From a virus, in IMG/VR virus record IMGVR_UViG_3300045988_005064, positions 1 through 18,651 of that record: a DNA stretch of 18,651 nt, one strand, 5' to 3'. This document shows, piece after piece, positions 2,312-18,651 of this stretch. The first letter of the stretch is position 1, and every line of letters starts with the position of its first letter. The translations under genes and the position numbers were made by a program. The notes beneath the pieces are model-generated. The model had not been told where the DNA came from. It worked only from the letters and a program-made list of their open reading frames with translations, and searched no databases.

Positions 2312-3418
2312 TTACTTTCTTATGCCTGATTGTTGCAACAAGCCGCCAAGAATCATACTGAATTCCGCTTTAATTTGCGGGGTCTCGAACCGTAATCTAC
2401 CGACGCGATAAGCGTTCAGTATTTTTTGCGTCATGTCGTCGGAGCGCTTGAGCATCATGCAATTATTATCGACCAGCCGATAGTCAAACGTAAAATCCCT
2501 TGTGATTTTCGGCTGTTTTTTTGTGATGATATACAAGACTTCGTCGGTGTCGCTTAATTGCTGATAAACGTTGAAAATACCGTATTCGGTGGTTCTTAAT
2601 GTGAACGCATAACCGGCGTTATTGAAATCACTAATGAGAGCATTAGCATTGTCTCTAAAATCGTTATTGATCGCATAATTCGCATAATTCTCGTCATACC
2701 TGCGTAAAAACTGTCCGAATTTGGATGTGGCGACCTTGGCGCTGAACCCGCCGTAATCGGCCAGTTCCACCATAATAAATCCGTCGCAATACCGTTGATA
2801 TTGCGTATGATTATCCAGTTGCGGTTTCAGATTGATACTGAACGCGCTAAAGTACGGATTAGCAAGCGTCACCGCGTTACTGCACATGATGACCCTAACG
2901 CGATCGTTCCATCTATCGACGGTATTGTAAAATTCCTCAAGCGCCGTGACCTCTCCGCCAAGGTATCGCATATTATCCGGAAATATTTCATCGAAGATAA
3001 TGGTCCGGACTTTTGGGTAAGCGACTGATTTCACCTGTCCGGCCTGCGATAGGGCGATGAAGTATCCTATGATGTGCCATGTCGAGCGTTGCTTACCGTG
3101 CTTATCGGTGGTGGCGTCACGGTCGTCCAGCCAGTGACATTCGGCCTGATTTCCGGACACTCTGAATTCTAACTCTGGATATTGCTCCGCGATATCCGCA
3201 AACCACGTGCCTTTATTCTTCTGTTCCTCGGCGGTTCGGCGGAGGTAGATGAATTGCCAGCGTTTTTTTATCCAGTCGCCTATGACCAGTTTTTTGGCGC
3301 CATAGGTTTTGCCGAGGCCGCGCGCGCCGATGACGAACATCCAAGGCGCGTGATAGGACAGCACGCGTCCATAATCATAGTAATCGCCCTCGCTTAACAG
3401 CCTCTCCATATTATCCAT
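2312..3418 (-). CDS. DNA encapsidation (packaging) ATPase, phi29 gp16-like
   Basis: Walker A is VIGARGLGKTYGAKK and Walker B is TIIFDEIF. RVRVIMCSNAVTLANPYF parallels phi29 gp16 RVRCICLSNAVSVVNPYF (recalled). Size is similar (368 vs 332 aa). Confidence 0.9.
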   Translation of the reverse strand: MDNMERLLSEGDYYDYGRVLSYHAPWMFVIGARGLGKTYGAKKLVIGDWIKKRWQFIYLRRTAEEQKNKGTWFADIAEQYPELEFRVSGNQAECHWLDDRDATTDKHGKQRSTWHIIGYFIALSQAGQVKSVAYPKVRTIIFDEIFPDNMRYLGGEVTALEEFYNTVDRWNDRVRVIMCSNAVTLANPYFSAFSINLKPQLDNHTQYQRYCDGFIMVELADYGGFSAKVATSKFGQFLRRYDENYANYAINNDFRDNANALISDFNNAGYAFTLRTTEYGIFNVYQQLSDTDEVLYIITKKQPKITRDFTFDYRLVDNNCMMLKRSDDMTQKILNAYRVGRLRFETPQIKAEFSMILGGLLQQSGIRK

Positions 3419-6687: not shown

Positions 6688-7323
6688 TTATCCTTTCCTA
6701 TCGAAATTGTCTGCGGTTGGATTGCGTTCGACATATCGTGCATCCGCTTCCGATTGCGTGATGAACGACATGTCGGCGGGTGGATTCTCAGGCATGCTCT
6801 TGCCGTAGGGGAATTGTGAGCGGCCCGGAAAATCGCCGGGAACACAATTGTCAACGGCGGTTGCTCTCAAGTCGTATTCGCGGGCATTAAGAGTAAGTCC
6901 ATCGTATTCCTGCGCGGTGAGCCGCATCTTGTCATAATCGCCGAAGAACAGTCCATGAATGCGCGAATTGTCGTACATGCCGCCCAACACTTGCTCGAGC
7001 GGTTGCGTAACACCGTAGACCGGTGATGTCGCCACACCCTGCTGCTTCATCTCATGGATCAGCGAGAGCAATTCCGCACGCAACGCGGCCATGTCCTGAT
7101 TAAGCTGTGCAACGGTATCCGCGAAAGCCTTGTCTACGGATACCGCTAGATCGGCTGTGGCCTCTTCGACTTTGCTTAAGTCGCGCTGGGTGATATCGAG
7201 ATTGTGGCGCAAGCATTCAATCAACTGTAAGGTTGTCAACCCGTCACGATAAGTGAACGGAACAGATGTAGGCACCCCGTCAAACAAGCGTTGCCGTGGA
7301 ACCAGTGCATTAATGGCAACCAT
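6688..7323 (-). CDS. Putative tail appendage / fibre-associated protein with coiled-coil segment
   Basis: Lies between the lower collar and fibre genes. The central heptad-like stretch is DLSKVEEATADLAVSVDKAFADTVAQLNQDMAALRAELLSLIHEMK. Start moved to the ATG at 7323 (GGGAG 5 nt upstream); the ATG at 7335 abuts the SD. Confidence 0.5.
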   Translation of the reverse strand: MVAINALVPRQRLFDGVPTSVPFTYRDGLTTLQLIECLRHNLDITQRDLSKVEEATADLAVSVDKAFADTVAQLNQDMAALRAELLSLIHEMKQQGVATSPVYGVTQPLEQVLGGMYDNSRIHGLFFGDYDKMRLTAQEYDGLTLNAREYDLRATAVDNCVPGDFPGRSQFPYGKSMPENPPADMSFITQSEADARYVERNPTADNFDRKG

Positions 7324-7338
7324 GATTACTCCCATCTC

Positions 7339-8118
7339 CTAGTTATGGCAGTTACTGAATATTGTATCATAAGTACCCCAAACCTGCATGAAGCAAGGTT
7401 CGAGACTGCGCACGATTTCCATATCCACATTGATGATCGCCTGCCGGTACTCTTGAATCAGACTCATGGCGCTCTGACTGCGTCCGGTCACGCGACTCTT
7501 GCCTTTGGAATTGCTTGAATCATGCTGGTAGTCGGTGGCGCTCTGCGCCGTGGTGTGGCTGGTTGAATCCTGTGAACTGGATGCCGTGCCGCTGCTGTCC
7601 GCCTGCGATTCGTTCGCATGCGAGGCGTAGCGGGCGAAGTCTCCTACGACGCCGGTCTGAGGCACGTCACTATCAAAACTCTTGGACGTGGTGGTGCTGG
7701 AATTATCCGACTTGGACGTACTAGAGCTGGTTGAATCCTGTGCGCTGGACGCTTTGCCGGACGATTGGGATTCGCTGCCGTTCTCGCTGTCCGTCGTCAT
7801 ATCCATTGAATCCAACGGATTGTATTCCATATCCAGCGTCCGATAGCGTTCATTGAAATACGGCATGATTTCCGCCATCGTCATACCTAAATAGAAGATG
7901 AACTGTTGCGCGGTTTCCTGACCAATCTCTCTAAGCGCATAATGGCGGATGATTTTCTCATTCAACTCCGCACGATGGTTCTCGTCATAAATAGGATAAT
8001 AATCGGTACTAAGATGTAGTTTATCGTCCGTATCGTAGCCGAATGCGATGAGATTGCCGAGAGTTTCGGTGTACTCTCCGGGCGCCGCCATCGCGTAGGC
8101 GCTAAAATCCTGTGTCAC
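7339..8118 (-). CDS. Lower collar protein (phi29 gp11-like) with Ser/Thr-rich insertion
   Basis: Sits directly after the portal with a GTGA start/stop overlap and SD GGAGGTG. The N-terminal motif IIRHYALREIGQETAQQF...MAEIMPYFNERY matches the lower-collar family pattern as I recall it. Confidence 0.65.
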   Translation of the reverse strand: MTQDFSAYAMAAPGEYTETLGNLIAFGYDTDDKLHLSTDYYPIYDENHRAELNEKIIRHYALREIGQETAQQFIFYLGMTMAEIMPYFNERYRTLDMEYNPLDSMDMTTDSENGSESQSSGKASSAQDSTSSSTSKSDNSSTTTSKSFDSDVPQTGVVGDFARYASHANESQADSSGTASSSQDSTSHTTAQSATDYQHDSSNSKGKSRVTGRSQSAMSLIQEYRQAIINVDMEIVRSLEPCFMQVWGTYDTIFSNCHN

Positions 8119-9065
8119 AATACACCTCCGATACCCGCGTCATATGATGCCGGCATGTCGATATCCGTCGTGCCGCTCGCGCTTGGATCAAGCGCGTTTG
8201 GCACGCCGGAGCTTTGCGCGTCCGCATACTCCACCCACACGCTCAACTGCGGCCATAATCGGTTGATCTCGGTCGCCGCAGTCTGCCGCGCCTTAAGGAA
8301 ACTCAGTCGGAACACGTCAACTTTCTCGTTGGCTTGCGCCACCTCATCCGAAATGAGCCGTTCCTTTTTCTCCGTGCCGGACGACTGAATACCGAGATAT
8401 CCCAACACCTCGTTAGTCACCTGCGCTTTTTGCTGGACGAACTTATCCAACAAATAAGGCGTAGTATTAGGCCACGGTTGGAACATGCTGCCGGGATCAA
8501 GCGAGTCGTATCCGATGATATAATCCTGACCGTCCTGCCGTTGCTGAAGCATGTTCTGCACGGTGAGCTTCGTACGCGGATCGGCTGTGATGATGGTCGG
8601 CAGCTTAAGACTCTCCAAATTCACATCATACGCCTTATCAATGTCAGCGAGACGCCGCGCGTACTGCCATAACGTCGACTTGAATCCGACTCGCATCCGA
8701 TTATCCCAAACTGGAATGCATTCCGAACCGGCCTTGAGCTGCTTGTAGTGGTAGTTGACGCCCACCGGTTCGAAACATGTCGGATTATTATACACATTCA
8801 ATCTGCCCTGATAGCCCGCCTGAGTCACAAGGAACCTGCCGATACGCTTGTCCTCGAAAAACAACGCGCAACCGTATTCACACAGACATATTTCCAACCA
8901 ACGTTCATCCACAGTAGGCGGCAATCCGCGCCAACTGAAACGGTTCAACGCCAGTTCCATCAGCAAATGAAGATACATGTCATCAAGCGTGACGGCGCGT
9001 GCTTTCGCGTAATTGCCACGTGGATGCAACGCGCCGCCAACCCGATTTTTTTTAGACCTACTCAT
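8115..9065 (-). CDS. Portal / upper collar connector protein (phi29 gp10-like)
   Basis: [35 protein letters not shown] parallels phi29 gp10 [56 protein letters not shown] parallels [21 protein letters not shown]. 316 aa vs 309 aa. Confidence 0.9.
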   Translation of the reverse strand: [316 protein letters not shown]

Positions 9066-9071
9066 ATCGCC

Positions 9072-9080
9072 ATTATATCA
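9072..9080 (-). promoter_or_regulatory. Consensus extended -10 (TGATATAAT) overlapping the tail-knob stop codon; candidate leaderless promoter for the portal gene
   Basis: The minus strand reads TGA-TATAAT-GGCGAT-ATG. Exactly 6 nt separate the hexamer from the A of the portal ATG (9065). No SD precedes the portal gene. Confidence 0.45.
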
Positions 9081-11384
9081 CTCGTAGCCAATGCCCGGCA
9101 GTGGCTCATTATCCGACCAATCGGTCACACCAATGTACTCAGGTTTGGTCCATACCGTCACGCCCCGTTCGAACATGCCCTTGATGGTCAGCCGCGCCTG
9201 TTCAGGCAGTGTACCTTTAATGTAGCATTCCTGCATCTGCCAGTAAGTGAATTTCTCCATACATTGCAAACTTGCGGGCGGAGTGACGAACCGCTGGACA
9301 AAATATCCGAAGCGCAACATAAACTCGCCCACCGAGCGCAACGCGCTGGGGGCGCACGTGCGGAAACGCACCAACACGCCCATGATGCCATTAGCGAGGT
9401 TGAACGAGTCGCCGCCCACCGCACCGCTCGTAGTCGGCGGAGTCATCTGCATTTGCTGGACCTGAGCGTTAATTCCAGCTATCGAGTTCTCATAATCCCC
9501 TTCAGCAAAGCGCGTGGCCAACCGATAGTTCTGTCCGGCCATCAGGGCACTGGACGCGCCCTGAATCTGCTGAGCACGTTGCGCGTAAGTGTTCGCCTGC
9601 GAGGTTTGCGCCGCATTGGTCGCCACACTGTTGGCGGTGTTCGCGGCTGCCGTATCATTGGCGATATCACGACTGGCGTACAGTCCCTTGTTGGCGATGT
9701 CGTTCTGTACGACGCCGCCGATGGCGCCGACGGCGCCGCCAATCAGTCCGGCCACGTTCCCTGACGTCAACGCATTCCCGGCATTGGAGACCAGCCCCCA
9801 CGCGGTTCGCGCGTTGTTTTGGGAGACATTCAGGTCAGTCATGGCATTGGTGTTCGCCTGCCCGATGGCCAACGACTGGTTAAGCGAATTGGCTGCGATG
9901 GCGTTCAGAGCGTTACGGTTGGTAACACCCAGCTGAGTCATCTCCTGCTGAGTACGAATCGCAGTGCCGGCCTGAGATAATGCATTGGCCGCGCTCATGG
10001 TCGCTTTCTGCTGCGCCCAACCAGCGGACTGCTCCGCGTAAGCGCGAGAGTACGCACTGTTCGCCATAGCAAGCGATGCTCCGTTGTTCACCGCCATGAA
10101 CTGAGGAAAGTTTGTGATACCGAAACTGACGTTAAGCATTTCCCCGCCGTCAATCGGCAGTCCGGTGCCGTTTCCGGACGGGGAGGAAATGGCAGAAGCG
10201 CCTGACGTATTGTAGTTCACCGGATAAAAGTTCAGGCGCGGAGACGGTGGCGCGTAGTTCCACGTTTCACGGATAACCAAGTCATTAGACTGGATGTCTT
10301 CAGGCCGATAGATGATGTTCGAGCCATTCAGGCACGAACATTCCACGACGCTATACGGATAGCACTGTAGTTTTTTTAGATTATGGTACCGTTCAGGAAT
10401 ATTAAAGTTATTGCGGAAATTCTTGATAGAGACAATATCATCATACCTGTTATCGCTTTTAGCCTCCCCAGCAAACGTATACACATGCCCTTCAACCACG
10501 CCGGCCACGTCGTTGCCAAAAAATTGCGTTACCTCACGTCCGGCGTCGGCTATATAGTCGGCGCTGATTTTTGGGATGGCGTAAATCGCGGTAATGCCCT
10601 GAGTGATCCACGGATACGAACTGCCTGCCTGCATGACGCGCGTAAAATCGTCGACGGTGTCAAAATAATAAATTCCCGCCCCGTTCGACTGATTCTCGAA
10701 CTGTGAGCCTTGCGCGGTTTTCAGCGATGGTTTTTCAGTGCTGCCGCCCGACGCCACAAGGTCGGTCGTGGCCGCGACAATGACACCATAATCCAAGGTT
10801 GGCGAATTAAAGCCGGATTGTGCTGGCTTGCTGGACATAAGCGCCGTATACGACTGTGAGGTAATGACGGTTTCCGCGCCGGTATCCAAGCCCTCCGGCA
10901 GTGCAAGCGTGGTACGTCCGTAATCGTCCCACTGGCGTTCATTGGCGACGCCGATATGGCCGCGCGTCACATAGCAACTGCCAAAACTCACGTCAAACTG
11001 GAAACTTTGCCATACGTCCAGCATAAGCGTGAGCTGTGTGGTGTGCGCGTTGACGTATTCCACGGATTCAATAAAGTAATACCATGCGCGTGGCGATTCC
11101 AATTCGGAGTAATCGTTGACGGCTACAAGATAATTGTAGTTTGACGCTTGGTTGAATGGCATGTCGATACGAACGGGGGCGCCGAAAATATGCATAGTGG
11201 CTGGCCTGCATTCCACTCCATCCAGTTTGTCGAACCATTCCTGCTGTGTTTCACGTGAAACAAACCGTACGATATCACGATATGAAGCATCCCACGGCGC
11301 GCGGCAGAGTTTCAGTGTCGTGTTCGGCGTCCACTCCGCCCACGAAAAATTAGATTCCACATAAGGATTCGCGTCGTCAATCAT
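9078..11384 (-). CDS. Tail knob protein (phi29 gp9-like), expanded
   Basis: AWYYFIESVEYVNAHTTQLTLMLDVWQSFQFD parallels gp9 [32 protein letters not shown]. The C-terminus FGYFVQRF...GVTVWTKPEYIG parallels YGYKINRV...GITLWHTDNIG. The hydrophobic Gly-rich segment is GNVAGLIGGAVGAIGGVV. Start set at the ATG at 11384 behind SD GGAGGA. Confidence 0.88.
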   Translation of the reverse strand: MIDDANPYVESNFSWAEWTPNTTLKLCRAPWDASYRDIVRFVSRETQQEWFDKLDGVECRPATMHIFGAPVRIDMPFNQASNYNYLVAVNDYSELESPRAWYYFIESVEYVNAHTTQLTLMLDVWQSFQFDVSFGSCYVTRGHIGVANERQWDDYGRTTLALPEGLDTGAETVITSQSYTALMSSKPAQSGFNSPTLDYGVIVAATTDLVASGGSTEKPSLKTAQGSQFENQSNGAGIYYFDTVDDFTRVMQAGSSYPWITQGITAIYAIPKISADYIADAGREVTQFFGNDVAGVVEGHVYTFAGEAKSDNRYDDIVSIKNFRNNFNIPERYHNLKKLQCYPYSVVECSCLNGSNIIYRPEDIQSNDLVIRETWNYAPPSPRLNFYPVNYNTSGASAISSPSGNGTGLPIDGGEMLNVSFGITNFPQFMAVNNGASLAMANSAYSRAYAEQSAGWAQQKATMSAANALSQAGTAIRTQQEMTQLGVTNRNALNAIAANSLNQSLAIGQANTNAMTDLNVSQNNARTAWGLVSNAGNALTSGNVAGLIGGAVGAIGGVVQNDIANKGLYASRDIANDTAAANTANSVATNAAQTSQANTYAQRAQQIQGASSALMAGQNYRLATRFAEGDYENSIAGINAQVQQMQMTPPTTSGAVGGDSFNLANGIMGVLVRFRTCAPSALRSVGEFMLRFGYFVQRFVTPPASLQCMEKFTYWQMQECYIKGTLPEQARLTIKGMFERGVTVWTKPEYIGVTDWSDNEPLPGIGYE

Positions 11385-11400
11385 TGTTATCCTCCGGTAT

Positions 11401-11445
11401 GACAAGGCCCGGAGCAATCACGTGGATTACGTTCCGGGCCTTGTC
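11401..11445 (-). promoter_or_regulatory. 13-bp perfect stem-loop just upstream of the tail-knob RBS
   Basis: GACAAGGCCCGGA (11401-11413) pairs perfectly with TCCGGGCCTTGTC (11433-11445). The 19-nt loop contains an inner ACGT/ACGT stem and the 10-mer AGCAATCACG, shared with the hairpin at 13611-13638. Confidence 0.5.
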
Positions 11446-11489: not shown

Positions 11490-11498
11490 ATTATATCA
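11490..11498 (-). promoter_or_regulatory. Consensus extended -10 (TGATATAAT) overlapping the major capsid stop codon
   Basis: The minus strand reads TGA-TATAAT-AGGAGAG. The TG of the extension comes from the TGA stop. Confidence 0.4.
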
Positions 11499-13226
11499 CG
11501 CGGTCACGGTCACGCTCTTCTTACCGGACACGCCGAACAGTGTGGCGGTGATGCCAGAGCCGCCCTCCTTGACGCCAGTCACCACGCCGGACTCGGACAC
11601 GGTGGCGTTCGCCGGAGTGCCGGACGTCCATGCGGCCTGTGCGGTCACGTCGGCGGTACGTCCGTCAATCATGGTCGCCACGGCAGTAGCCTGCGCCGTA
11701 TGTCCTACGGTCACGTTCGGTACGGTCACGGCAATGGACGCGATGATGGACGAGTTGAATCCGATAACACCGTCACCGACCACCTGCACGTCCAGAGCCG
11801 CGGACACGGTGTCCGGCACTTCCGGCGTCTTCGGATTCGTGTACAAGGCGGTTGCGGTAATCGGAATAGTGGTGTTCGGTTCGTCAAGTCCGACCACAAG
11901 CACGCCGGTAGGCGAAATGTATGTGTAATCGCTCTTCGGCTTGGCGGTGTCGCCAATGCGATACTCGACCGCGTTTGAGCGGAACGTGGCGGTGCCGTCA
12001 TTGCCGATAGTCGTGTCGGCAGTGACCTGCACCGCGCCACCACGCGCCACATTGCTCGGAGTTTCCGAGCCACCGCCATACATGGCAAGCTTAAGTTGGA
12101 ATTTCGGCGTCTCGGCCTGCGTGCCGGTAGGGGCCACCACGTTCGCGGTGGAACCGGCGCCGGTCCAGAACATGACAGCCGGAGCGAAGCCGGACACTGA
12201 GATGATGTGCTGGACATGCAGATAATGGTTGACCGAATTGATGTTGACCGGATTGGTCTGCTGAGTCATCTCGTTGATGACGGGAATGTCGATCAGGAAC
12301 TTGTCGGTAGTCAAGATGGCCTGTACGCCATCCATGCCGAACCGGTCTTGCGGAATGACGATAATCCGGTCGATGGTCGGCTCGGCGTCCGTACGCTGGA
12401 ATACCGTGGCGAGGCCCTGCACGTCAAGCGCCGACTTGACTTCCGGCGAACAGAACAATACGAGTTCGTCCGGACGGGCGAAGGTCGGCATATGGCGAGC
12501 ATTGTACTTGGTCGAAACGAATTTAAGCGTGTCCGCCCATGCGCGAATCTGGCGCAACATGTCGCGGGCGTCGGTTTCCGAACTGCTCATATTGTTCAGA
12601 TCGTTGTTCATGTGGACACGCCAATATCCGCCAAGCTTCGCGTACTCGACGAACTGGTGGCACAATGCTTCGAACAAGTCAACTTCAGCCGCATTGTAGC
12701 AGGATGTGAGAATCTGAGAAGTGAGCGAAGCCAAACCGTTTTCGGAAGTGAACGCACGCTGAAGCGTCTTGTCATCCGTGGTCGCAGGATACCAGTGAGC
12801 AAAGTCCAGACGGTGATAGAGCGAATCCACGTCGATTTTCCACTTGCGGAAGTTGTCCGCGCCGAGATATTCCGCATTAGGATCGTACACCTGCGCGAGC
12901 GGCATGCCTACGGCGATTTCCTGCCACGTGTCGCCATACGCTTGCGACGCACGCTGGAAAACACTGAGCGGATTGTTCCAACGCCACGTGTTCACGTAGG
13001 TGCCGCCGATGCGATTCACCAGCGCCGAATAAAACTCGTTCTTAAGCTGAGTGGACGACATGAGTGTAGCCATCTGCCTATCCATGTTCATCTGAGTGGC
13101 CGAGGGCATTCGCCGCTGATATTCCGGCGACGCCTCGTTGCGAATCATGTTCAAGATCTGAGCGTTGTTGAATTCGGTGAGCGGTCGAAGTTGCTGTTTC
13201 GGCGTCACCGCGGGAGTAGTTGCCAT
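11496..13226 (-). CDS. Major capsid protein (phi29 gp8-like) with C-terminal Ig-like (Big_2) domains
   Basis: LKNEFYSALVNRIGGTYVNTWRWNNPL parallels gp8 [27 protein letters not shown]. The C-terminal 80 aa (VTVGHTAQATAVATMIDGRTADVTAQAAWTSGTPANATVSESGVVTGVKEGGSGITATL) fit a Big_2 pattern, and a second Ig-like stretch precedes them. SD AGGAAGGAA. Confidence 0.9.
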   Translation of the reverse strand: MATTPAVTPKQQLRPLTEFNNAQILNMIRNEASPEYQRRMPSATQMNMDRQMATLMSSTQLKNEFYSALVNRIGGTYVNTWRWNNPLSVFQRASQAYGDTWQEIAVGMPLAQVYDPNAEYLGADNFRKWKIDVDSLYHRLDFAHWYPATTDDKTLQRAFTSENGLASLTSQILTSCYNAAEVDLFEALCHQFVEYAKLGGYWRVHMNNDLNNMSSSETDARDMLRQIRAWADTLKFVSTKYNARHMPTFARPDELVLFCSPEVKSALDVQGLATVFQRTDAEPTIDRIIVIPQDRFGMDGVQAILTTDKFLIDIPVINEMTQQTNPVNINSVNHYLHVQHIISVSGFAPAVMFWTGAGSTANVVAPTGTQAETPKFQLKLAMYGGGSETPSNVARGGAVQVTADTTIGNDGTATFRSNAVEYRIGDTAKPKSDYTYISPTGVLVVGLDEPNTTIPITATALYTNPKTPEVPDTVSAALDVQVVGDGVIGFNSSIIASIAVTVPNVTVGHTAQATAVATMIDGRTADVTAQAAWTSGTPANATVSESGVVTGVKEGGSGITATLFGVSGKKSVTVTA

Positions 13227-13248: not shown

Positions 13249-13590
13249 TCAGTCTTCGTATAGGTCGTCGAAAGTGCTGTAGGTGCCGTTATAGTCGTCG
13301 TCGGTCATTTCAGCCGATTCCGGCGTCGCATTGTCGTCGGGGCCATCGTTTAGCACATGGTCTGCTGCGGCGTCGCGCATCGCCTCAATGGTTTTAGACA
13401 ATTCCGCCACGGTCGCCTCCAATGCACTCAGCCGGTCGGCCATGTCGGCGTTCTTGTCGTCGTCCGCGTCTTCCGGTTCGCCATCATCCTGCGTTTCAGG
13501 TTCCGGATTCGGCGTATTGTCGTCGGCGGTCACGTCCGGTTCGGCGTCGGACGTGGTGTCCGGCTTGTCATCATTTTCGGTGTCGTCCAT
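13249..13590 (-). CDS. Putative scaffolding protein (very acidic, central helix)
   Basis: Lies immediately upstream of the capsid gene, as phi29 gp7 does. 113 aa, Asp/Glu-rich flanks, central helical DRLSALEATVAELSKTIEAMRDAAADHV. Start set at the ATG at 13590, 5 nt after GAGG; the GTG at 13596 lies inside the SD. Confidence 0.55.
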   Translation of the reverse strand: MDDTENDDKPDTTSDAEPDVTADDNTPNPEPETQDDGEPEDADDDKNADMADRLSALEATVAELSKTIEAMRDAAADHVLNDGPDDNATPESAEMTDDDYNGTYSTFDDLYED

Positions 13591-13596
13591 AATCAC

Positions 13597-13778
13597 CTCT
13601 TAAGGTAGATGGCACGGCAGCAATCACGCTGCCGTGCCGGATTTTGCTGGGCTGTGCGGGTTCCCTCGCCGTCGATGGGCGTTGGCTACGCACGTCTACA
13701 TCCGACCGAATCGCCTTACCGATTGCCTACCGGCCGGGCCATTGAATCGGCTTGGGACGCACACTCCGCTACCAGTCA
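13597..13778 (-). ncRNA. Structured 182-nt non-coding region: candidate packaging RNA (pRNA-like) or long structured late leader
   Basis: No ORF of 60 aa or more on the transcribed strand. A consensus extended -10 sits at its 5' edge. There is a perfect 11-bp hairpin at 13611-13638, further helices at 13719-24/13745-50 and 13709-13/13720-24, and a long-range pairing of 13653-58 with 13758-63. Confidence 0.3.
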
Positions 13779-13786
13779 TTATAGCA
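13778..13786 (-). promoter_or_regulatory. Consensus extended -10 (TGCTATAAT) overlapping the DNA polymerase stop codon
   Basis: The minus strand reads ATG-CTA-TAA-TGA, containing TGcTATAAT. The predicted start near 13771 is the 5' end of the non-coding gap preceding the morphogenesis genes. Confidence 0.45.
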
Positions 13787-15239
13787 TAAAAAAACAGCCG
13801 TCATCGTTGAGGTGGCGTGACCTCGGCAGGAAATCATCGTAAGGAATTGGAGCCGCTCGATGCACGCCGCTCAACCGCATGACGGTATCGCCGTCCGTTT
13901 CCACGCCGCAATATTTGCGATTGCCGAGAATGCGGAGTTTTTCATAGGTGTGGTCGTTTTTCCACATGCCCAACTTCTTGTCGTCCGGTTCAATATCTGC
14001 GGGCGCGTCTGACCCCTCCAAGATCATGCCGTCCGTATCGGCGTAGAGCACGCGGTCGGCGTTCGCATTCATCGCGCGTGACAATATTTGCCGACCGTAG
14101 GCGTTGACATATGCGGCGGTCGGTAGCCATGCGAGTGAGTTGGCCGACTCAGGTTTGTCCACAGTAAAATCCACACCCCCGTCGCCGGAGGGTTTCGGGT
14201 GCAGCATAGGCCGATAAAGCGAGGCGCCGAATTTTCCTACCAACGAGTTCAGCAATAGTTTCGCCATCTGCCGACGTTCACCGGTTGCGGTTTGTTTCAC
14301 GCGAAACCATTTATCAACGTAGTTGCAATAAAGTCCATGCGATTTACGGAATTTCCATCCGCCGATATAATTCCACACATGGACATCATAGTTTTCCGTC
14401 AAGGTCTGCCAATCCACGTCGGTCACCGGCATGGTGACGACGCCTAGCGTACTGTCCATACGTTCGCCCTCGTACCCCCATACAGGGAGGATGTTTGTAA
14501 GTGTCGCCGTTTTCCCAGCTTTCAGCCGCGCATCGAACGATACAACATCGATATGCAGCGGATAATCAGCGTCATAATGATATTCCTCTTCATACCAGAT
14601 AGGAGATCCTACCGGCATGGCAAAGTCGCGCATAATACTCGGATAGAGACTGTTCACATCCCAACTCCTGCAATCCCGATATTCCCCCGGTCTGCTGTAC
14701 ACTATCGCGCCATAGTAAGCGGGGCGCATCCGATGATATTCCGCTTTATCCAATGGCGGAAAATGACGCTTGAATCCTGCGTAATCTCCTCCGATGTAAT
14801 CGCTCATTGCCATAGACGCTATGGTCGTGCCCTTGAGATTCAAGGCGTCACATTCCCGCGCGATGTTCCACGTGGTTTCCAAGTCGTCCGCACCGCCAAA
14901 TGTTTCACGTGAAACATTCAATCCGTCATCGCGTGTGATGTTGCGCACGTCCAGAAAATCCACGGTGATGCCACCCATACGCACGCGGAAACTATAGAAA
15001 TGGCCGCGAATGTTGAAGGTACCACAAACCCCATCTTTTGCTGGATTCAATTGCAGAGGGAGACGCCTCAGTAACTCAGCCGCTATAGGCTTGATATCCT
15101 GCCAGCCATGTGCGCACCATACGCGCGTATGATGGTCAAGCATGGTCAGTCGGATTACGGCGTTCGCCGTCAATGGCGTTATGCCGTCGTCCGTCAATAG
15201 TGTTGCGCCGTCTGTTGCCGCCGTTCGACGCTCTCGCAT
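13779..15239 (-). CDS. Protein-primed family-B DNA polymerase (phi29 gp2-like), compact 486 aa
   Basis: Motif A is WDVNSLYPS, motif B is KLLLNSLVGKFG, motif C is VLYADTDG, and the KxY motif is NRKY. ADYPLHIDVVSFDARLKAG parallels phi29 EDYPLHIQHIRCEFELKEG. NYVDKWFRVK parallels DFIDKWTYIK. SD AAGGA. Confidence 0.93.
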   Translation of the reverse strand: MRERRTAATDGATLLTDDGITPLTANAVIRLTMLDHHTRVWCAHGWQDIKPIAAELLRRLPLQLNPAKDGVCGTFNIRGHFYSFRVRMGGITVDFLDVRNITRDDGLNVSRETFGGADDLETTWNIARECDALNLKGTTIASMAMSDYIGGDYAGFKRHFPPLDKAEYHRMRPAYYGAIVYSRPGEYRDCRSWDVNSLYPSIMRDFAMPVGSPIWYEEEYHYDADYPLHIDVVSFDARLKAGKTATLTNILPVWGYEGERMDSTLGVVTMPVTDVDWQTLTENYDVHVWNYIGGWKFRKSHGLYCNYVDKWFRVKQTATGERRQMAKLLLNSLVGKFGASLYRPMLHPKPSGDGGVDFTVDKPESANSLAWLPTAAYVNAYGRQILSRAMNANADRVLYADTDGMILEGSDAPADIEPDDKKLGMWKNDHTYEKLRILGNRKYCGVETDGDTVMRLSGVHRAAPIPYDDFLPRSRHLNDDGCFFML

Positions 15240-16199: not shown

Positions 16200-16221
16200 G
16201 GTCCCTCCCGTGAGTAAAGAA

Positions 16222-16256
16222 CACCCCTCGCCGCAAGGATGGAACGGCGGGGGGTG
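16222..16256 (-). terminator. GC-rich 12-bp stem-loop followed by UUCUUU; candidate attenuating terminator between the SSB and terminal protein genes
   Basis: Minus strand reads CACCCCCCGCCG-(11 nt)-CGGCGAGGGGUG then UUCUUUACU. There is one C.A mismatch on the minus strand, which is a U.G pair on the plus strand. Confidence 0.4.
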
Positions 16257-16264
16257 AGTCTGGC

Positions 16265-16290
16265 GGCAACATCCCTATAGGGACATTGCC
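16265..16290 (-). other. 11-bp stem-loop with UAUA loop, strand-specific to the minus-strand RNA
   Basis: Minus strand reads GGCAAUGUCCC-UAUA-GGGAUGUUGCC with two G.U wobbles. Both positions become C.A mismatches on the plus strand. Confidence 0.45.
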
Positions 16291-16318
16291 ATGATATCAT
16301 ACAGTGCGGACAATAGTG

Positions 16319-16756
16319 TTACTTGCGCTTGTTTTCCGTCACCAGTTCAAGGTCAAAGAACTTGTAGCCACGGCGGCTCTTCTTTTCCACCACCTTGAGA
16401 GCAAGTGGCTGATTCCACGTGTCCGGCGTGCCGAAAATGGCGAACAGGTTGCCGAATGCGTGCGCCAGCGTAGGTGAGGCGGCGGCGAAATCGCCTTCCT
16501 CCGCGTGAATGACGACGCGGGTGGACGAATTGATTTCGCCAGTCTCCTGATTGGCGACTTCAATAGCCTGCGCCAGCACGTTGGTGACGTGCAGCGGCTC
16601 GTTAAGGTGTTCATCTACCTTATCGGCGGTCTGCATGGCGTTGTACAGTGCCATCTTGCCGTCCATCGTGGAAGTGTCGAAGAAGTGAGATACGGCGTTA
16701 GTGCCGTTCGCAGAAAAGTTGTTGCCGTTCGTTACGGTCAGTTCGTTGTCAGCCAT
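16319..16756 (-). CDS. Single-stranded DNA-binding protein (phi29 gp5-like)
   Basis: By-eye colinearity with recalled phi29 p5. HFFDTSTMDGKMALYNAMQT parallels ATFDTETLEGQIKIFNAQTG. LALKVVEKKSRRGYKFFDLEL parallels FKVKVVQGTSSKGNVFFSLQL. The position upstream of terminal protein and polymerase also fits. Confidence 0.65.
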   Translation of the reverse strand: MADNELTVTNGNNFSANGTNAVSHFFDTSTMDGKMALYNAMQTADKVDEHLNEPLHVTNVLAQAIEVANQETGEINSSTRVVIHAEEGDFAAASPTLAHAFGNLFAIFGTPDTWNQPLALKVVEKKSRRGYKFFDLELVTENKRK

Positions 16757-18416: not shown

Positions 18417-18444
18417 TTTAGATTCCTTCCTTATCGGCTGATAC

Positions 18445-18651
18445 TCACATCATACCACACCACAAAAAACAACACACCCAAAACACACAAAAAAATGAGA
18501 ACAAAACAAGGCAAAGAAAAAAACACACAAAGAACGAGGATGAAAAACACAGAGAGCAACAGCAACACAAAAACACACAAAGCAACAGCAATGCAGAACA
18601 CAGAACAGAGCAGTTATGGAAAAAGGATAGCTGCTAGGGACCCTCCCCTCC
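18445..18651. repeat. Right inverted terminal repeat
   Basis: Exact reverse complement of 1-207. The repeat reaches the last base of the window. Confidence 0.97.
18449..18457 (-). promoter_or_regulatory. Extended -10 promoter TGGTATGAT (right-end, inward-facing), copy 3
   Basis: Mirror image of 195-203 inside the right ITR. It would drive the long minus-strand gene array. Confidence 0.6.

Follow-up and report, generated by a model that had tools for sequence, protein, structure and literature searches.

The DNA analysed here, an 18,651-bp viral sequence (IMG/VR record IMGVR_UViG_3300045988_005064, called the window below), is a complete linear phi29-like genome that carries 229-bp inverted terminal repeats and has all of its credible genes on the - strand. 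Our subject is the 182-nt gap at 13597-13778, which separates the stop codon of the DNA polymerase gene from a scaffold-like open reading frame (ORF). Comparison with related phages suggests that this gap encodes a non-coding RNA resembling the packaging RNA (pRNA) of phage phi29, and probably an analogue of it. An earlier note on this DNA had singled out the gap as the largest non-coding stretch, and it is indeed the largest internal intergenic gap: among the 19 gene-strand junctions the next largest measure 119, 78, 64 and 52 nt, 10 span 2-27 nt, and four are overlaps. The scaffold gene more likely starts at ATG 13590, preceded by the Shine-Dalgarno (SD) sequence AAGAGG, in which case the gap is 188 nt long.

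The same note had seen a consensus extended -10 element ahead of the gap. This element, TGCTATAAT, is present and overlaps the polymerase stop codon, and it predicts an RNA start at about 13772-13770. The stop codon lies inside the box in every related lineage even as the stop itself varies (bracketed in TGCTA[TAA]T, TGCTA[TGA]T, TGCTA[TAG]T and TGTTA[TAA]T). The surrounding pattern TGnTAnnnT is constant, with TAA, TGA or TAG as the stop, at 13778-13786 in the window, 4357-4365 in L081, 4452-4460 in L082 and 4450-4458 in L083, and in L173-L184. At the other end of the gap, in the window and in L173-L184, the RNA directly abuts the scaffold ribosome-binding site and is continuous with the late mRNA, and neither a U-tract terminator nor a second promoter was found between the RNA and that site in the nine lineages examined. 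With no such terminator or downstream promoter, the RNA would also be the 5' leader of the late mRNA and would need to be released from it.

On the - strand, the minimum free energy (MFE) of the gap is -80.7 kcal/mol (z = -3.7), and none of 200 shuffled sequences was equally stable. Two + strand ORFs that run across the gap (13609-13842 and 13634-13789) were rejected: relatives differ there by indels of 1, 2 and 3 nt, indicating that the gap is not coding. Rfam scans of the window, of the gap and of the related RNAs (gathering thresholds, and E <= 5-10) matched no family in the gap or in those RNAs; matches at 771-1017 were set aside as caused by a bidirectional terminator at 851-885. A pattern scan of 185,579 species genomes for the conserved 5' motif of the RNA returned no match, which argues that it is not a bacterial or prophage element.

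A conserved, covarying RNA between the polymerase and scaffold genes

Close relatives were collected by a capsid-based search of IMG/VR, which gave 80 contigs of about 18 kb with capsids 91-97% identical to that of the window; 78 distinct sequences were analysed, forming alignment A1, and a covariance model, R1, was built from this close clade only. Among these relatives the gap region is 81-94% identical, keeps its length, and is more conserved than the neighbouring coding sequence. RNAalifold, run on the 78 sequences, places a long closing helix and an inner helix leading to a junction, followed by an arm (here C-E), a short second hairpin (D) set directly against the closing helix and, beyond a linker of 7 nt, a 3' hairpin of 12 bp. 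In the arm, a 7-bp helix is followed by a bulge of 7-8 nt, present on the 5' side alone, and then by a 4-bp helix capped with a 6-nt loop. The layout is therefore that of a three-way junction in which the A helix is formed by the 5' and 3' ends, the C-E arm bears a bulge on its 5' side, and the D hairpin abuts the A helix (Table 1). This consensus fold is 99.3% paired across the 78 sequences, compared with 28-44% in slid controls, and it beats 500 of 500 shuffles on all five measures.

The gap encodes an RNA from the gene (-) strand. In so shallow a clade, double changes are numerous in the 3' hairpin alone, and nearly all changes in the other stems are transitions that keep G.U pairs on the - strand; this fixes the strand while leaving some alternative pairings open. 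Consensus energies agree with this assignment, at -73.6 kcal/mol for the sense strand and -49.7 kcal/mol for the antisense strand. Mutual information in the close clade is dominated by phylogeny and says nothing about the bulge.

Table 1. Parts of the predicted RNA and neighbouring features in the window.
Feature	Position	Strand	Basis or detail
Extended -10 promoter-like element TGCTATAAT	13778-13786	-	sequence; polymerase stop TAA (13781-13779) inside the hexamer
Candidate RNA, ~162 nt, predicted start to end of 3' hairpin	13611-13772	-	model R1, 207.8 bits over 13597-13778
Closing A helix, 5' strand	13755-13769	-	pairs with 13646-13664; A1 columns 10-24 / 120-138
Inner extension of closing helix, 5' strand	13739-13751	-	A1 columns 28-40 / 106-116; leads to three-way junction
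C helix, 5' strand CCGGCCG	13731-13737	-	pairs with CGGUCGG 13702-13708; A1 columns 42-48 / 72-78
5'-side bulge GUAGGCA, putative counterpart of pRNA CE / right-hand loop	13724-13730	-	GGC at 13725-13727
E hairpin, 4-bp stem AUCG/CGAU, 6-nt loop GUAAGG	13710-13723	-	A1 columns 57-70
C helix, 3' strand CGGUCGG	13702-13708	-	
D hairpin GCGU-AGCCA-ACGC, putative counterpart of pRNA D / left-hand loop	13679-13691	-	A1 columns 90-105; GCC 13684-13686
Inner extension, 3' strand	13668-13678	-	directly after D hairpin, 0 unpaired bases
Closing A helix, 3' strand	13646-13664	-	
Single-stranded linker before 3' hairpin, 7 nt	13639-13645	-	
3' hairpin, 11-12-bp stem, loop GUGAUU	13611-13638	-	no U-tract
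Tail AUCUACCUU, then SD AAGAGG, probable scaffold start ATG 13590	13588-13610	-	sequence
Phi29-type single-stranded DNA-binding protein (SSB)	16319-16756	-	Pfam
Family-B, protein-primed-type DNA polymerase (PolB)	13779-15239	-	Pfam
Acidic scaffold-like ORF, 115 aa	13249-13596	-	
Phi29-type major capsid protein	11496-13226	-	Pfam
gp9-like tail knob	9078-11417	-	Pfam
gp10-type connector (portal), presumed docking site	8115-9065	-	Pfam PF05352, 1e-40
gp16-type packaging ATPase, presumed RNA partner	2312-3418	-	Pfam PF05894, 2.7e-43

Several pairings that the earlier note had drawn by eye from the window alone could be weighed against this consensus. Its 11-bp hairpin (13611-21/13628-38) holds, with five covarying pairs in the close clade; the pairing 13709-13/13720-24 is the E helix, and 13653-58/13758-63 forms part of the closing A helix. 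A further proposed helix, 13719-24/13745-50, is 99.8% compatible within the close clade, which is uninformative, but it would exclude the E helix and was missing from L179, the single divergent relative in which it was sought. An end-to-end pairing of GGUAG with CUACC fell away, being kept in just 89% and lying outside the consensus. Two other candidates were rejected: the window's single-sequence MFE structure as the fold of the family (about 170 broken cells; 95.6% paired against 99.3% for the consensus), and a local hairpin CCGGU/AUCGG (32-46 broken cells).

More divergent lineages were found by a protein search with the polymerase, from which eight contigs were fetched (polymerase identities of 77, 55, 55, 53, 46, 44, 42 and 42%). 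All eight keep a polymerase-scaffold gap of 169-193 nt, a TG(C/T)TAT(A/G)AT box with the stop codon inside it, and a 3' hairpin whose stem is entirely different and whose loop is GUGAUU or a near variant. Model R1 matches seven of the eight over its full length at the syntenic gap, scoring 193, 78, 42, 40.5, 39.8, 36.5 and 34.4 bits (E from 1e-52 to 1.8e-8), and nothing of comparable score elsewhere. In the eighth lineage, L180, the match is weak (12.8 bits, E 0.019) and tied with an off-target match.

Six divergent and twelve close sequences were fitted to the model to give alignment A7. In it 96% of cells are paired, compared with 30-39% for slid partners, and 34 of 51 pairs changed on both sides, compared with 15 +/- 2.6 in shuffles and 8-11 in slid controls, although A7, having been fitted in this way, leans towards structure. 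When the divergent RNAs were each folded singly by MFE, the same modules emerged independently. Covariation reaches every helix of the consensus: 6 of 14 pairs in the closing A helix, which is invariant in the close clade; 8 of 10 in its inner extension; 6 of 7 in the C helix, whose close-clade changes are G.U-compatible; all four in the E helix (in L179, for example, the stem is CGCG/CGCG and the loop unchanged); 3 of 4 in the D helix; and 7 of 12 in the 3' hairpin. Homologous gaps in close and divergent relatives thus carry the conserved, covarying structure for which the earlier note had advised looking.

Two unpaired elements stand out for their conservation. In the bulge the GGC is nearly invariant, with both G residues invariant and the C present in 77 of 78 sequences. 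The GUGAUU loop of the 3' hairpin (variants GUUAUU, AUUAUU and GCGAUU) is kept on unrelated stems in all Bifidobacterium-phage lineages except BadAztec. Conservation of a loop on wholly different stems suggests that it is the site for a sequence-specific partner or a processing signal. GUGAUU lies at 13622-13627 in the window, 4612-4617 in L082 and 4609-4614 in L083, and is present in L173-L184; in the window it is repeated between the SD and the AUG of the scaffold gene.

A shared layout in phages of Bifidobacterium and Arthrobacter

Among isolated phages, those closest to the window by capsid protein are Bifidobacterium phages (36-42% identity), and a polymerase 87% identical to that of the window is labelled as a protein from a Bifidobacterium breve metagenome-assembled genome. 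The window phage is probably a Bifidobacterium phage; by megablast, the whole window had no match to isolated phages. The isolated Bifidobacterium phages BadAztec1, BP1 and BD811P1 have gaps of 178-230 nt in the same place, with the polymerase stop inside TGCTATAGT, TGCTATAAT or TGCTATGAT.

Every lineage had a promoter-like extended -10, and only the BP1 clade had, in addition, a terminator and a second promoter. At the 3' end of the RNA of BP1 and BD811P1 stands a hairpin with a GUGAUU loop; AUUUUAUUUU follows it, completing a canonical intrinsic terminator. In the BP1 clade a second box, TGATATAAT, lies ahead of the scaffold gene and is nearly invariant in 79 sequences. As read from these signals, the BP1/BD811P1 RNA is a discrete gene of about 165 nt with its own extended -10 and terminator. 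A hand-built pRNA-like structure is 96.1% paired across 72 distinct BP1-clade RNAs, compared with 34-54% when slid, and has 19 pairs with double changes, compared with 9.0 +/- 1.7 in shuffles, none of 500 of which equalled it.

For the Arthrobacter phages Anjali, Swim, Tillums and Mendel, RNAalifold gave the same layout unguided, with 14 of 54 pairs compensated (n=4). In the BadAztec clade, represented by two sequences, the closing helix and the 3' hairpin covary, and the interior yielded no clear fold. The window-family models R1 and R2 gave weak full-length matches at the right place in BadAargau2, Anjali and Mendel (E 0.02-0.08) and no match to the BP1-clade RNA body. With matches this weak or absent, these clades share architecture and synteny with the window RNA, and homology is not established.

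Some features of the actinobacterial relatives bear on gene arrangement. In Anjalivirus (L167, 4714-5294; L169-L171) a ribbon-helix-helix gene lies between the polymerase gene and the RNA, and the closing helix of the Arthrobacter RNA begins at the stop codon of that gene (AAGCGUGAUUCAUGG). The same AAGCGUGAU follows the small gene of Curtobacterium phage Reje, where the gap is only 96 nt. Anjali (L167) has a second long non-coding gap, 327 nt at 7293-7619, between the capsid and tail genes.

The remainder of the window adds further observations. Its terminal repeats (1-229 and 18423-18651) are 98% complementary and contain CA/TG-rich motifs of about 24 nt spaced roughly 40-50 nt apart, and the innermost 35 nt of the left repeat (195-229) recur exactly at 549-583, 354 nt further in. 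The end region at 230-895 has about 42% G+C and no convincing gene; two + strand ORFs (231-491 and 593-847) and a - strand ORF (283-696) had no PHROG match, and if non-coding this region exceeds the studied gap in size. The bidirectional terminator at 851-885, a perfect 16-bp stem, stands between it and the endolysin gene. The polymerase is short for a phi29 type, at 486 aa compared with 572 aa for phi29 gene 2, and its Pfam match spans only residues 134-342. The second largest internal gap, 119 nt at 16200-16318, lies between the SSB gene and a 314-aa ORF; this ORF occupies the usual position of the terminal protein and had no Pfam or PHROG match.

A packaging-RNA reading and its rivals

The proteins with which a pRNA would work are encoded by the same phage. 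The packaging ATPase, which the earlier note had called a phi29 gp16 homologue, matches PF05894 and is homologous to gp16 along its full length, with 31% identity across residues 6-319 of 332. The connector can be aligned with phi29 gp10, and its N-terminus is similarly basic (MSRSKKNR, compared with MARKRS in phi29); work on phi29 has implicated the N-terminal RKR of gp10 in binding pRNA. The phage thus encodes both a gp10-type connector and a gp16-type ATPase. The candidate's length of about 162 nt falls within the range of about 120-174 nt expected of a pRNA, and its 3' domain follows a linker: the junction part runs from 13769 to 13646, the linker is 7 nt, and the hairpin is 28 nt.

In phi29 the bulge (right-hand loop) of one pRNA molecule pairs with the D loop (left-hand loop) of the next. 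Such loops covary between phages, and pairs of 3-4 nt with a GG/CC core define them and, like even GG/CC alone, suffice (Jin et al. 2025, PMC12670572). The earlier note had advised looking for two loops with 4-nt complementarity; related lineages have 4-6 nt in differing sequences, and the window has 3 nt (Table 2). In the BP1 clade, pair 51:97 between the loops is GC in 61 sequences, GU in 8 and AU in 3, with no mismatch. Bulge and D loop are therefore complementary in most lineages, through differing sequences, and weakly so in the window; whether the pairing would join separate molecules is not readable from sequence.

Table 2. C-E arm sequences and bulge/D-loop complementarity. P is the chance of the loop pairing among random loops of equal lengths.
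Lineage	C 5' strand	Bulge	E helix	E loop	C 3' strand	Bulge/D-loop pairing	P
Window (pairing: window clade)	CCGGCCG	GUAGGCA	AUCG/CGAU	GUAAGG	(U)CGGUCGG	GGC/GCC, nearly invariant	0.19
L179	CCUCAUGC	GUGGCA	CGCG/CGCG	GUAAGG	GCGUGAGG	UGGCA/UGCCA	0.002
L177						GACUA/UAGUC	0.004
L176						GACUG/UGGUC (G.U pairs included)	0.02
BP1 (pairing: BP1 clade)	GGCUGG	AUUGCCA	CGGC/GCCG	UGAGAAU	CCGGCC	UUGCCA/UGGCGG, 4-6 nt	0.02-0.08
Anjali	CCGG	ACAGCU	CCCC/GGGG	UUGAAU	CCGG	AGCU/AGCU	0.03
L182	CGCUUC	AGGCGA	CGUA/UACG	UUAGGU	GGAGCG		
phi29 (same test)						AACC/GGUU	0.04

Taken together, the comparative sequence evidence best supports the interpretation that the earlier note had put forward, that of a candidate packaging RNA, with its function predicted rather than shown. 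On this reading, host RNA polymerase would start at the extended -10 that overlaps the polymerase stop, and the first ~162 nt would fold into the three-way junction. The long closing helix would be the analogue of the A helix and the docking site for the gp16-type ATPase; the C-E arm, with its 5'-side bulge and 4-bp hairpin, would lie on the prohead/connector side; and the 3' hairpin would be analogous to domain II of pRNA. Copies would join head to tail, the GGC of one bulge pairing with the GCC of the next molecule's D loop. While DNA is being packaged, the resulting ring would link the empty prohead, on whose connector it would sit, to the gp16-type ATPase. The window family would make the RNA as the 5' end of the late (scaffold-capsid) transcript and free it through processing, or through partial termination at its GC-rich 3' hairpin. 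Terminators lacking a U-tract have been proposed in Actinobacteria.

A number of observations weigh against this reading. The Rfam pRNA model RF00044, with which the earlier note had proposed to search, had no match at E <= 10 in the gap or the whole window, nor (gathering threshold 100 bits) any match at E <= 10 in the BP1, BadAztec1 and Arthrobacter RNAs, and neither R2 nor R1 matches phi29. With no match in either direction, the link to pRNA rests on architecture and context and not on homology that could be demonstrated. Three-way junctions whose loops interact are common among RNAs. We know of no pRNA demonstrated in the staphylococcal and streptococcal picoviruses, which also have gp16 homologues, so that the presence of such a homologue is no proof that an RNA is needed. 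The complementarity in the window extends over 3 nt only (P ~0.19), no convincing complementarity was seen in the L181 and L182 lineages, and the D-loop bases of the BP1 clade can equally extend the D stem. Finally, the anatomy of the window-family RNA, which has no terminator and runs straight into the scaffold ribosome-binding site, has the look of a leader acting in cis.

This last point underlies the main rival, which we consider unlikely: that the RNA is purely a cis-acting 5' leader of the late (scaffold-capsid-tail) operon and is never free. It would then act on the late transcript's timing, stability, translation or read-through, for instance as the target of a phage or host protein or as an element that modifies RNA polymerase. 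The earlier note had named such a 5' untranslated region of the scaffold-capsid operon as its alternative, and in the window phage the description is anatomically true. In the window and the eight divergent relatives the RNA is flanked by the one late promoter that could be seen and by the ribosome-binding site of the scaffold gene, and the 3' hairpin is 12-25 nt upstream of the SD. A weak hairpin overlapping the SD can form in the window (in one fold), and in the Arthrobacter phages the ribbon-helix-helix gene is immediately upstream. The 5' position expected of a leader is found in the window and L173-L184 but not in the BP1 clade, where a canonical terminator ends the RNA and is followed by a separate TGATATAAT in 79 sequences, making the late genes there independent of read-through. 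Moreover, the alignments and single folds, in which no dedicated search was made, revealed no covarying terminator/antiterminator or SD-sequestering pairing, and the 3' hairpin covaries only with itself. A three-way junction, invariant loops and lineage-specific complementarity of bulge and D loop would all be superfluous for a simple leader. The pRNA and leader readings are not mutually exclusive.

It is decidedly improbable, in our estimation, that the RNA is a phage small RNA acting in trans in some other job, as a decoy or regulator of a host or phage protein, with convergent resemblance to pRNA. The discrete BP1 gene with promoter and terminator, the strong conservation of loop sequences, and the lack of a detectable sequence relationship to pRNA would all suit such an RNA. 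Nothing, however, indicates a specific alternative, and no Rfam family matches, whereas position, size, topology, loop complementarity and the co-occurrence of gp16 and gp10 fit a pRNA. Conservation across Bifidobacterium and Arthrobacter phages also points to a function tied to the phage core machinery and not to a host-specific target. A DNA-level element (sites for transcription or replication proteins at the early/late boundary) or a non-functional spacer can be given hardly any credence: the gap does lie at that boundary, where phi29 has p4 and p6 binding sites (the p4 site was seen in phi29), and does contain inverted repeats, but its substitutions are strand-specific (a G.U pair on the - strand is an A.C mismatch on the other), covariation extends to 34 pairs in long-range helices, folding is far better on the sense than on the antisense strand, indels exclude coding, and the gap is more conserved than flanking coding sequence.

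A broader proposal can be ventured, though we hold it only tentatively and would not be surprised to see it fail: that a packaging-motor RNA is ancestral to, or widespread among, phi29-like protein-primed podoviruses, that the actinobacterial pRNA has diverged to the point where architecture alone is shared, and that the window family makes it as a late-mRNA leader, coupling the motor RNA to capsid-protein synthesis. To our knowledge, pRNA is the only RNA known as a structural part of a viral DNA-packaging motor. Reviews have called it unique to phi29 and related Bacillus phages (PMC11476376, 2024; PMC5066667, 2016), and the 12 pRNAs that a 2025 survey using Infernal added were all from Bacillus phages (PMC12670572). 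In full-text literature searches, no report turned up of a pRNA, or of an RNA like it, from phages of Bifidobacterium, Arthrobacter or other actinobacteria. RNA-containing packaging motors may not be limited to Bacillus phages, and the question bears on whether an RNA is needed in the many other phages with gp16-type ATPases. There is now a concrete candidate in cultivable systems, namely the Bifidobacterium phages BP1 and BD811P1-3 and the Arthrobacter phages Anjali and Mendel. Should the packaging role hold, these RNAs would form the first independent, highly diverged set of pRNAs, separating essential from incidental features of the RNA; they would inform the debate over whether pRNA survives as a relic or took over late from a protein domain, reveal a new production route in which the RNA is an mRNA leader, and offer new ring-forming scaffolds for RNA nanotechnology. 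Should the RNA instead prove to be a leader, it would be an unusually large, conserved regulatory RNA in abundant human-gut phages.

Comparison with known systems

Among late-operon leaders, of which the HK022 put RNA and lambda-type antitermination sites are examples, the window-family RNA finds a parallel in being the first ~160 nt of the late transcript, immediately after the late promoter. Elements of the put/nut type are, however, shorter stem-loops that have no three-way junction or loop-loop complementarity, and in the BP1 relatives a terminator, together with a promoter for the late genes alone, separates the RNA from them.

The pRNA of phi29 is a second known system. Like the window RNA, it comes from a small podovirus that uses protein priming and has a connector of the gp10 type and an ATPase of the gp16 type. 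It is encoded beyond the polymerase gene, where the early region ends, under a sigma-70-type promoter of its own; the earlier note's placement of the phi29 pRNA gene was correct in this respect, with the promoter to be added. Both RNAs are about 160-175 nt long and follow the same order: a closing helix, a C helix, a bulge of 6-10 nt on the 5' side, a 4-bp E helix, a 6-nt loop and then D, the D hairpin abutting the closing helix, with a single-stranded linker and a 3' hairpin domain beyond. In the RF00044 drawing of phi29 (which scores 145.4 bits as our control), the A helix leads to a C helix of 5 bp, a U bulge and 4 bp, then to a 9-nt 5'-side bulge, a 4-bp E helix with loop UUGAGU, the bases UUU, and a 6-bp D hairpin abutting the A helix. 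E loops resembling UUGAGU are present in several lineages (UUGAAU, UUGGGU, UUAGGU and UUAAGU). In all the candidates whose arms are given in Table 2, the 3' strand of the closing helix begins immediately after the D hairpin. Domain I of phi29 pRNA comprises residues 1-117, followed by a 13-nt linker and the 3' domain II at 131-174 (Hill et al. 2016, PMC5066667), and, as in phi29 pRNA (PMC12670572), the bulge and D loop of most lineages here could pair through a G/C core, weakly so in the window.

The two also differ. The hosts here are Actinomycetota and not Bacillus, and the window gene, which shares its strand with all the other genes, is flanked by those for the polymerase and the scaffold and is not placed at a genome end. 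The window-family RNA lacks a terminator and is fused to the late mRNA. In the candidates the closing helix has longer internal loops, with an extra small hairpin in the BP1 clade; the linker from C to D is 10 nt compared with 3; and the 3' hairpin bears the conserved GUGAUU loop, of which none was seen in phi29. Given these differences in gene position and expression, together with the failure of the Rfam model, we do not file the RNA as a member of RF00044.

A further precedent is the putative pRNA of Streptococcus phage Cp-1, reported in 1996 (Martin et al., J Virol 70:3678) and known to us as cited in PMC6266182. As described there, it too was proposed from sequence and folding in a non-Bacillus phi29-like phage, and it too escapes a covariance model built on Bacillus pRNAs. 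Its host belongs to another phylum, and the proposal drew on one fold, whereas the candidate described here is backed by covariation over well above 100 sequences.

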